Positions 17,577-18,607 of a stretch of DNA of 64,000 nt are shown here, one piece after another. Origin of the DNA: Escherichia phage Andreotti; sequence record MN850610.1, one strand, 5' to 3'. The position numbers were made by a program, and so were the translations under genes. The notes under the pieces were generated by a model, which was given only the letters and a program-made list of their open reading frames with translations, did not search any database and had not been told where the DNA came from. Each line of letters begins with the position of its first letter. Within the stretch, counting starts at the first letter, position 1.

Positions 17577-18164
17577 ATGAAACTGTTAAATATCAAAATC
17601 ACTGGTACTCGTCCTTTCCTGAGCCATGCAGATACTCTGTCAGACCCATTAAACCCTCTGACAAAATATCACAAGTCTCTGTCCAGTAAACGTAAAAAGA
17701 CTGACGAAGACTATGCGCTCTTAGCAGAAAGTCAACTGGTAACTTCTTGCTACTACGATGACCAACTAGGTTTTGTTATGAACGGTGAGATGATTGAGGC
17801 TTGTATCAAGTCTGGTGCAAAACTCAATAAACTTGGTAAGGTAATTGACCGAGCCATTATGCTGACAGATGTAGTCTTCCCAATGACTATCAAGAACTGC
17901 CCAGCAAACCCACAAGAACTTGCTAAGAATCCAGACTTTATCTATGCTAAGTCTGTTAAGATTGGTACAGCACGAGTTATGAGCTACCGTCCAATCTTCC
18001 GTGACTGGTCTGTAGAGTTCGGTTTGATGTTCGATGAAGAGCAAATCACCAAAGAAGAACTCTTGATGGTTCTGGAAAATGCTGGTAACCTTTGTGGTGT
18101 AGGTGATTGGCGTCCACGCTTTGGTCGTTTTTCTGTAGAAGTTATTTCAGAAGGTAACGTTTAA
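17577..18164 (+). CDS. hypothetical protein (195 aa)
   Basis: track ORF 17562-18164; start likely [10 protein letters not shown] at 17577. Confidence 0.6.
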
Positions 18165-18166
18165 TT

Positions 18167-18607
18167 ATGAATACAAAAGCATTAGCAGCAAAGTTTAGTT
18201 ACGGTGACACTGTATCACACTCTGAGATGGATACCTTCTTAGGTATTGTGAAGCCAACTTATCAAGGTGACATTGTTAAGTACGAAGATGAAATGAAGGC
18301 TTATGCGCTTACACGTCTAAACCGACTTGAGAAGTTTATTGAGAAGCTTCTTAAAGAAGAGAAGATTTATCTGGTTGCTTCAATGGGTGTTGGTTATCGT
18401 GTGGTTGAGCCTAAGCATCAAGCAACTATTGCAAAACGCAAAATGTCTGGTAAGATTGGTCGTGCTTTAAAGCAAGCCACTCAAGCGATTGAGAATGTGA
18501 ACACTATGGCACTTAGCCATCAAGAACGTTCACGACTAATTGAACAGCAAAACCACTTAGCTGCTATGAAAGCTAACATTAACAAGCAACGTAGAAAACC
18601 TTTCTAA
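18167..18607 (+). CDS. hypothetical protein (146 aa)
   Basis: ORF track; followed by terminator. Confidence 0.6.
   Translation: MNTKALAAKFSYGDTVSHSEMDTFLGIVKPTYQGDIVKYEDEMKAYALTRLNRLEKFIEKLLKEEKIYLVASMGVGYRVVEPKHQATIAKRKMSGKIGRALKQATQAIENVNTMALSHQERSRLIEQQNHLAAMKANINKQRRKPF

Follow-up and report, generated by a model that had tools for sequence, protein, structure and literature searches.

The closest described relatives of the element considered here are the VIPR (Viral Interference Programmable Repeat) systems, reported in two 2026 preprints (bioRxiv 10.64898/2026.04.26.720920 and 10.64898/2026.04.26.720927). A VIPR locus comprises vipr, which encodes an ancestral RAMP protein, an accessory vap gene and flanking genes for guide RNAs, the vrRNAs. 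In the published vrRNA, 9-16 YNNGG repeats lead into a 3' tail that is invariant and contains a pseudoknot. Each repeat takes up one Vipr protomer, which sequesters GGY and presents the dinucleotide NN; NN pairs with double-stranded DNA (dsDNA) read as NNx, one base being skipped, usually at the wobble position; the result is an R-loop triplex and transcriptional silencing of the target. In phage SUSP1, where one vrRNA gene lies upstream and three lie downstream, the preprints demonstrate expression of the vrRNAs as ~100-nt RNAs, their assembly with Vipr into a ribonucleoprotein (RNP) and silencing of the target, and vap1 is reported to enhance protection. Thus described, VIPR is a machine of minimal make-up that recognises DNA under RNA guidance through a non-contiguous code, and it has been proposed to predate CRISPR. 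We analysed a stretch of 64,000 nucleotides from Escherichia phage Andreotti (MN850610.1), hereafter the window, and conclude with high confidence that positions 17168-19029 are a type II VIPR locus of the SUSP1 clade in a Felix O1-like phage. The locus itself is already known through the 2026 preprints; the present analysis adds a different array layout and five new guides. All the testable defining features of type II VIPR are present: Vipr, vap1, the vrRNA repeats, their tail, foreign targets with a 1-nt skip and an absence of self-targets.

The assignment rests in the first place on the protein encoded by the first of the two genes of the locus. It aligns from end to end (195/195 residues) with chain D of PDB entry 36pp, "SUSP1 Vipr protein", at 98% identity, and this was the single PDB entry matched, whether the search was made with the sequence (E = 2e-128) or with a profile of 33 relatives (E = 3e-81). 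The four differences from SUSP1 Vipr lie at positions 62, 119, 191 and 192; in our own reading of the alignment, the RNA- and DNA-contact residues named in the cryo-EM preprint (one of bioRxiv 10.64898/2026.04.26.720920 and.720927), namely H17, K33, R39, E71, M72, K82, K88, R138, D177, W178 and R179, are unchanged. More than 500 relatives of ~190 residues were found in phages, prophages and metagenomes. The AlphaFold2 model (pLDDT 94.7) independently matches RAMP subunits of CRISPR complexes of types III and VII, namely Csm3, Cas7 and Cmr4 (Foldseek probability 1.0, TM about 0.5). On the strength of its sequence and its predicted structure, the first gene product is Vipr, with a modelled Cas7/Csm3-like RAMP fold. 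The product of the second gene is identical at 145 of its 146 residues to the SUSP1 open reading frame (ORF) downstream of vipr, and has 234 distant relatives. Its model is helical and confident (pLDDT 95), and a fold search against the PDB returned weak winged-helix-like matches only (E about 0.5), which are compatible with the label 'predicted DNA-binding' given in the preprint and do not constitute evidence for it. Pfam gave no match for Vipr, for Vap1 or for 40 relatives of Vap1, and a search of both proteins against PHROGs returned families of unknown function only. The initial annotation of this stretch had been unable to assign either protein, a statement that no longer stands: Vipr is a RAMP protein whose structure has been solved, and Vap1 is its accessory protein. 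Structure prediction, which it had put forward as a check, was informative for Vipr and left Vap1 with the weak matches just mentioned.

The second body of evidence comes from the repeats. The two genes, which are co-oriented, were described initially as lying between composite repeats of the same orientation, and both the ORFs and the repeats are confirmed: four direct-repeat families, D1-D4 (125, 100, 67 and 32 nt), join 17225-17500 to 18635-19003 in the same orientation. Each repeat unit is built of an inverted-repeat spacer of ~40 nt, a G-rich tract of 5-nt period (GGTNN) and a small hairpin with a variable stem and a conserved loop. Non-coding GGT-dense tracts are restricted, within the window, to these two repeat regions; further candidate copies at 23346-23557, 33128-33206 and 59504-59576 are GGT-dense but were rejected as glycine-rich coding sequence. 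An exact search for copies of the spacer motif returned no match, since the copies differ by a 1-nt indel, and an Rfam scan of 16900-19300 (E <= 10) yielded two snoRNA noise matches and nothing else. These composite repeats turn out to be five vrRNA guide genes, of which two precede vipr-vap1 and three follow it (Table 1); their tracts parse as 11-15 GGYNN pentamers in one register anchored at the tail. In a sample of 64 unique tracts drawn from the window, 24 IMG/VR Felixounavirus contigs, FO1a and ASO1A, the first position of the pentamer is G in 77% of cases, the second is G in 98% and the third is always a pyrimidine, and the entropy of N4 and N5 is near maximal (1.96 and 1.89 bits). A TRAP-like protein-sponge RNA of the form (GGUNN)n had been the first lead and was dropped once the PDB match to Vipr appeared.

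The tails carry a structure supported by covariation. Fourteen distinct tails align without gaps; the 4-bp pseudoknot (GTAG/CTAC, GTGG/CCAC or AAGG/CCTT) is paired in 100% of them with compensatory changes in three of its four pairs, and the 7-bp hairpin has such changes in six of seven, giving 9/11 for the two elements together. This covariation score was reached by none of 500 shuffles, and pairing fell from 90% to 27-39% when the partners were slid by one to three columns. Each vrRNA is preceded by a G·U-rich spacer hairpin of 16-20 bp (z from -2.4 to -3.6), of which there are two sequence types, A and B. Because they use G·U pairs, these hairpins form only in the RNA of the + strand. They are probably processing sites that would release single vrRNAs; no discussion of them was found in the searchable text of the VIPR preprints. 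The repeats have left traces in public records: those of wV8 (EU877232/NC_012749) and KhF3 (KT184315) label them 'DR_4' or 'direct repeat sequence4 possible binding site of StbAB', so that they had been noticed earlier and misassigned, and several BASEL-collection records mark the spot with a 'repeat_region' feature and nothing more. The list of direct repeats in the Felix O1 genome paper has other entries and does not include these.

The third line of evidence is the match of the guides to a foreign element. The satellite was traced through the stated homology of its baseplate gene to the phage baseplate hub. The window gene at 31820-32617 (- strand), which adjoins the tape-measure gene, matches the "phage baseplate protein" gene of the satellite, with 91-96% nucleotide identity over about 550-780 nt in the closest records. 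Matching baseplate genes were found in 474 of 5426 complete E. coli genomes (about 9%), always in the chromosome. The satellite is ~11 kb long and contains a tape-measure gene, the baseplate gene, a large serine recombinase, an HNH gene and small ORFs (L006-L010 and L038-L043 in our numbering), and is inserted at yciI/tonB, at ymdF/wrbA, at a DUF72 gene beside yecD, or beside dinB. For SUSP1, the VIPR preprints (bioRxiv 2026) report 72% protein identity between the phage and satellite baseplates; the identity found here is far above this value, and it can therefore be surmised that Felixounaviruses may be the main helpers of the satellite.

Eleven of the 474 satellites (136 kb) were scanned with an exact NNx scorer and a skip of 1 nt. 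All five guides have their best matches in the satellite, with 83-92% of the NN bases matched: vrRNA1 (21/24 NN) and vrRNA2 (25/30) in the large serine recombinase gene, vrRNA3 (24/28) on the template strand of the tape-measure gene, vrRNA4 (22/24) in a gene of 324 nt, and vrRNA5 (20/22) 30-61 bp upstream of a satellite operon. Permuted guides reached these scores in 0, 0, 0, 0 and 1 of 200 trials for vrRNA1 to vrRNA5, respectively. Skips of 0, 2 or 3 nt gave background values only (15-19 NN matches), as did the 1-nt-skip scan of the E. coli flanks and of the window (16-20), and the five guides have no self-target across the 64-kb window, their best scores of 16-18 being background. The skipped base coincides with the codon wobble position in the targets of vrRNA1 to vrRNA3. 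For vrRNA4, the best supported target (L006 10948-10982; L008 6520-6554) has 18 of 18 contiguous core NN bases matched. The same tendency extends to relatives: for 32 of the 64 guides, at least 85% of the core NN bases are matched in the first five satellites, and vrRNA1 and vrRNA3 of SUSP1 have no match in these five. One satellite itself bears a vrRNA (L009 2361-2460, - strand) with 10-12 GGYNN pentamers, a type-2-like tail and a covarying stem (GTCG/CGAC), in agreement with the statement of the VIPR preprint that some satellites carry guides. Separately, a guide of the relative L014 matches the baseplate gene of the present phage (32105-32133, - strand) at 17/20 core NN; if that guide is aimed at the satellite homologue of the gene, only about three NN mismatches would separate helper from satellite.

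We propose that the promoter would transcribe vrRNA1 and vrRNA2, then vipr and vap1, with three more vrRNA genes lying past the terminator. As described for SUSP1, Vipr would polymerise on the GGY repeats of the vrRNAs, each protomer binding one pentamer, hiding GGY and presenting NN, and the NN bases would pair with dsDNA read as NNxNNx, blocking transcription of the target. The five guides would be aimed at the satellite, two at the recombinase gene and the others at the tape-measure gene, a small gene and an operon-proximal region. Guides directed at a satellite would make the locus a phage anti-satellite weapon. In this scheme RNP formation, the skip rule and silencing are taken from the papers; protein identity, RNA anatomy, tail covariation, the in-silico targets and the lack of self-targets were established here.

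Several observations weigh against the identification of an operating type II VIPR locus. That the locus is expressed in this phage, that its RNA is processed at the spacer hairpins and that the downstream array is transcribed would follow by analogy, the evidence of expression and binding being that of SUSP1. No sigma-70 promoter match was found for vrRNA3-5, which sit behind the terminator; the three equivalent downstream RNAs of SUSP1 were detected by small-RNA sequencing (bioRxiv 2026 VIPR preprints). The parser required at least two of three GGY matches, which somewhat inflates the conservation of positions 1-3. In the vrRNA4 target, the skipped base falls at codon position 2 of the annotated 324-nt ORF, so that either the annotated frame is wrong or the target is not read as codons. 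No guide is matched at 100% in the 11 sampled satellites, and vrRNA2 reaches 83%. Some of these points could be taken to mean that the locus, though a genuine VIPR system, is inactive here or in the course of decay, with, for example, degenerate pentamers in vrRNA1 and downstream guides that are not transcribed. Several AGY, TGY or TGC pentamers do occur in vrRNA1 and vrRNA2, the downstream array has no promoter match and many relatives have lost vipr; yet the active SUSP1 vrRNAs hold the same AGT, TGT and GTT variants, both ORFs are intact and 98-99% identical to active proteins, and the five guides still match the satellite above the permutation controls. We consider decay very unlikely.

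The source phage is a Felixounavirus (Ounavirinae, Felix O1-like): a megablast search with 17000-19200 matched 230 phage records, all Felix O1-like, the closest being Escherichia phages ekra and heid (97% identity). The vipr-vap genes are found in 117 phage records, against 259 that match a wider locus query, and are absent from FO1a (Felix O1), Si3, ASO1A, EC6, mio, VpaE1_ev78 and Pr103Blw. In the vipr-less loci the promoter, the leader and the downstream promoter and gene are the same, and one or two vrRNA units remain between them, forming a repeat-to-repeat junction. Where two units survive, the leading one is that of one VIPR-plus array and the trailing one that of a second: L027, for instance, begins with a unit nearly identical to the first one of L011, whereas L016 begins with a unit that matches the 3' part of this L011 unit and ends with one that matches those closing the arrays of tootiki and L024. 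Such junctions would be expected from unequal recombination among the tail and spacer modules, which are repeated; the direction of the change, loss versus gain, is one that we infer. About half of the related phage records would have lost the protein genes through these apparent repeat-to-repeat deletions. One further record, GU169904.1 ('Staphylococcus phage SA1'), carries the Felixounavirus locus at 89449-92382 with 94% identity, and is probably a chimeric or contaminated assembly.

The comparison across relatives that had been suggested thus revealed the anticipated polymorphism with repeat-to-repeat junctions, and the description of a recombination-prone accessory cassette is retained in so far as the cassette is autonomous, non-core and polymorphic. 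It fails where it treats the repeats as markers of recombination only, for they are vrRNA guide genes. Likewise, the promoter and the terminator attributed to the cassette were both found; the repeats had been placed outside the transcription unit, whereas the promoter lies upstream of the left repeat block, so that the transcript includes the left repeats. A moron-like cassette, bounded by repeats that are mere substrates of homologous recombination with no function of their own, would explain the presence/absence polymorphism and its junctions, which are real, and the resemblance of VIPR-minus arrays to the first and last units of VIPR-plus arrays. It is contradicted by the strict GGY/NN periodicity with hypervariable NN, by the compensatory covariation in the pseudoknot tail, by the match of the NN codes to a specific satellite and by the adjacent protein, a structurally characterised binder of such RNAs. 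As the primary function of the repeats it is already contradicted, and we regard it as extremely unlikely. The probability is close to nil that the repeats are a replication origin or partition site with iterons bound by the two encoded proteins: short periodic G-rich repeats do flank two small proteins near replication genes (ligase, polymerase), and the KhF3 and wV8 annotations point that way, but the protein is an RNA-binding RAMP and no initiator, the G·U pairs and the pseudoknot give a structure only in the + strand RNA, the code carried by the variable bases matches foreign DNA and the vipr-less phages replicate without the cassette.

With the locus taken as a VIPR system, the solo vrRNAs that persist in vipr-less phages raise a further question, that of their targets. 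The vipr-vap coding block is matched by only 2 of the 64 guides, with a perfect core match for both; these two are solo vrRNAs of vipr-less phages, and none comes from the sampled VIPR-plus phages. The Felix O1-type solo guide was found in 38-39 phage records, among them that of the type strain NC_005282, and none of these annotates it. Solo vrRNA loci were observed at L003 1434-1530 (Felix O1/FO1a) and in L012, L019 and L035-L037, and are promoter-driven. Each vipr site (Table 1) is the single best match of its guide in the 64-kb window (20/24 for the Felix O1-type guide, 18/20 for the EC6/JN01 guide), and both fall inside the 588-bp vipr ORF. The match of the EC6/JN01 guide is 16/16 after trimming of the first and last pentamers. 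Permuted guides reached the vipr scores in 2 of 1000 trials for the Felix O1-type guide and in 0 of 1000 for the EC6/JN01 guide.

The Felix O1-type guide has variants that diverge from one another at several GGY positions and keep the NN code; the sole core NN change, CT to TT in VpaE1_ev78, yields a guide that matches at 20/20 the TTG-Leu vipr allele of the window and of SUSP1. Among 15 vipr alleles, non-wobble polymorphism affects 8 of 36 positions in the two target cores and 6 of 354 outside them, a clustering with a one-sided Fisher p = 4.9e-6 that comes from a small sample and ignores phylogeny. The changes at the target sites include Leu CTN to TTG and Lys to Arg. We read these results as evidence, at the level of sequence, that vipr may be targeted in nature by guides from Vipr-less relatives. 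Since the phages with solo guides have no Vipr, the guides could act only through the Vipr protein of a rival. It can be hypothesised that they are 'anti-VIPR' guides, which in co-infection would load onto the rival Vipr and turn it on the rival's own vipr-vap operon, vipr escaping by mutation of the bases that are read; we give this proposition an even chance of being correct. The ASO1A-type solo guide, with no target in the satellites, in vipr-vap or in the window, weighs as a caveat on it. The VIPR preprint reports vrRNAs targeting other VIPR systems in the Pseudomonas fulva prophage VIPR clade (its fig. S15). For the SUSP1/Felix O1 clade, its accessible text makes no mention of anti-vipr guides, and the words "orphan" and "Felix" are absent there; loci without vipr would fall outside the SUSP1 clade of the preprint, which is delimited by the Vipr protein. 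As far as we can tell, repeat-to-repeat loss, anti-vipr solo guides and escape-like polymorphism are not described in the accessible texts. If the proposition is true, it describes a guide-only parasite of an RNA-guided system and an arms race visible inside one phage genus; it would offer a testable case of guide-only hijacking of an RNA-guided effector, and evidence from nature that selection by VIPR targeting operates in the wild.

Table 1. Coordinates in the window of the features of the VIPR locus and of the predicted sites of foreign solo guides.
Feature	Coordinates	Strand	Description
Sigma-70-type promoter TTGACA-16-TATACT	17168..17195	+	11/12 consensus match; precedes vrRNA1-vrRNA2-vipr-vap1
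Spacer hairpin, A type (CATCACTTAAGAG...TTAAGTGATG)	17222..17268	+	ahead of vrRNA1; z = -3.6
vrRNA1	17259..17356	+	11-12 GGYNN pentamers to 17318; type-1 tail (GGGTAG..AGTCTCA GCTAC ATTAAAA TGAGACT)
Spacer hairpin, B type	17354..17394	+	between vrRNA1 and vrRNA2
vrRNA2	17392..17500	+	15 pentamers to 17466; type-2 tail (GGGTGG..GGTAG TA GCCAC..CTACC)
Spacer-type hairpin	17503..17540	+	between vrRNA2 tail and vipr ribosome-binding region
vipr	17577..18164	+	195-aa single-RRM RAMP protein; PDB 36pp_D match E = 2e-128
Predicted vipr site of the EC6/JN01 solo vrRNA	17613..17641	-	18/18 NN, first nine pentamers; skipped base = wobble
Predicted vipr site of the Felix O1-type solo vrRNA	18042..18076	+	19/20 core NN here; skipped base = wobble
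vap1	18167..18607	+	146-aa VIPR accessory protein
Intrinsic-terminator-like GC-rich hairpin, then T-run	18619..18634	+	downstream of vap1
Spacer hairpin, B type	18635..18673	+	ahead of vrRNA3
vrRNA3	18672..18777	+	14 pentamers to 18741; type-1b tail (AATCG/CGATT stem)
Spacer hairpin, A type	18779..18813	+	ahead of vrRNA4; z = -3.4
vrRNA4	18809..18906	+	11-12 pentamers to 18868; type-1 tail
Spacer hairpin, B type	18903..18944	+	ahead of vrRNA5
vrRNA5	18941..19029	+	11 pentamers to 18995; type-3 tail (GGAAGG..GGCAG TA GCCTT..CTGCC)

The locus is flanked on one side by the gene of an ATP-dependent DNA ligase (15870-17009) and on the other by a small-gene block, after which come frd and td. The vipr ORF starts with ATG, the mechanical list of ORFs beginning instead at GTG 17562, and it is separated from vap1 by a gap of 2 nt. 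The promoter that precedes vrRNA1 is identical to the one that heads the solo vrRNA of vipr-less relatives. An inverted repeat, GGTGAGTA...TACTCACC, at 17186-17225 overlaps the -10 element of this promoter and is present in the window, SUSP1, FO1a and ASO1A, that is, in both VIPR-plus and VIPR-minus phages; it may serve as an operator or as the stem of a 5' leader. A strongly hydrophobic ORF of 52 aa (17013-17171) is located between the promoter and the ligase gene; it has the same sequence in ASO1A and is absent in FO1a, a second small presence/absence polymorphism at the junction. Further upstream, an ORF of 171 aa (14118-14633) directly follows the DNA polymerase gene and overlaps its end; its Tootiki equivalent is annotated as a homing endonuclease and wV8 has no gene there, which suggests a mobile insertion. 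That the initial annotation flagged an unusual and recently described system without databases indicates that a scan of raw sequence can find such loci.

Comparison with known systems places the locus more precisely. With phage morons and repeat-bounded cassettes it shares its own promoter and terminator, its dispensability, its variability among close relatives and the repeat-to-repeat junctions, but here the bounding repeats are functional RNA genes of the module. With TRAP bound to (G/U)AG-repeat RNA it has in common triplets of 5-nt period to which a protein oligomer binds; TRAP has an unrelated fold and another triplet, and the spacer bases of its targets bear no targeting code. The class 1 CRISPR-Cas filaments (Cas7, Csm3 or Cmr4 on crRNA) are closer, with a common RAMP/RRM fold, G-loop and thumb, one protomer per RNA repeat unit, periodic base flipping and RNA-guided recognition of foreign nucleic acid. 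In contrast to CRISPR-Cas, VIPR spreads its guide information non-contiguously over the RNA (2 of every 5 nt), passes over one target nucleotide in three and is encoded by a phage; its outcome, as the preprints report it, is silencing and not cleavage. No CRISPR array of identical repeats and unique spacers was found by repeat analysis of the locus, which contains pentamer tracts and composite units only; nor does it have cas1/cas2 or nuclease genes, there being two genes, neither with a Pfam match. With the Pseudomonas fulva prophage VIPR clade, the common feature would be an NN code that matches components of a rival VIPR locus, the difference being that the putative anti-vipr guides are here solo vrRNAs in phages without vipr (Felix O1, EC6 and relatives). 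The type II system of SUSP1 is the nearest of all: Vipr and Vap1 are 98% and 99% identical, the slot between the DNA ligase gene and the small-gene/frd/td block is the same, and so are the promoter, the leader, the spacer hairpins, the three tail types, the GGY/NN guide architecture, the class of satellite targeted in E. coli and the rule of skipping 1 nt. The two differ in the genus of the phage, Felixounavirus here and Suspvirus for SUSP1, in the array, with two upstream and three downstream vrRNA genes here against one and three in SUSP1, and in the NN codes, all five of which are distinct from those of the four SUSP1 guides.

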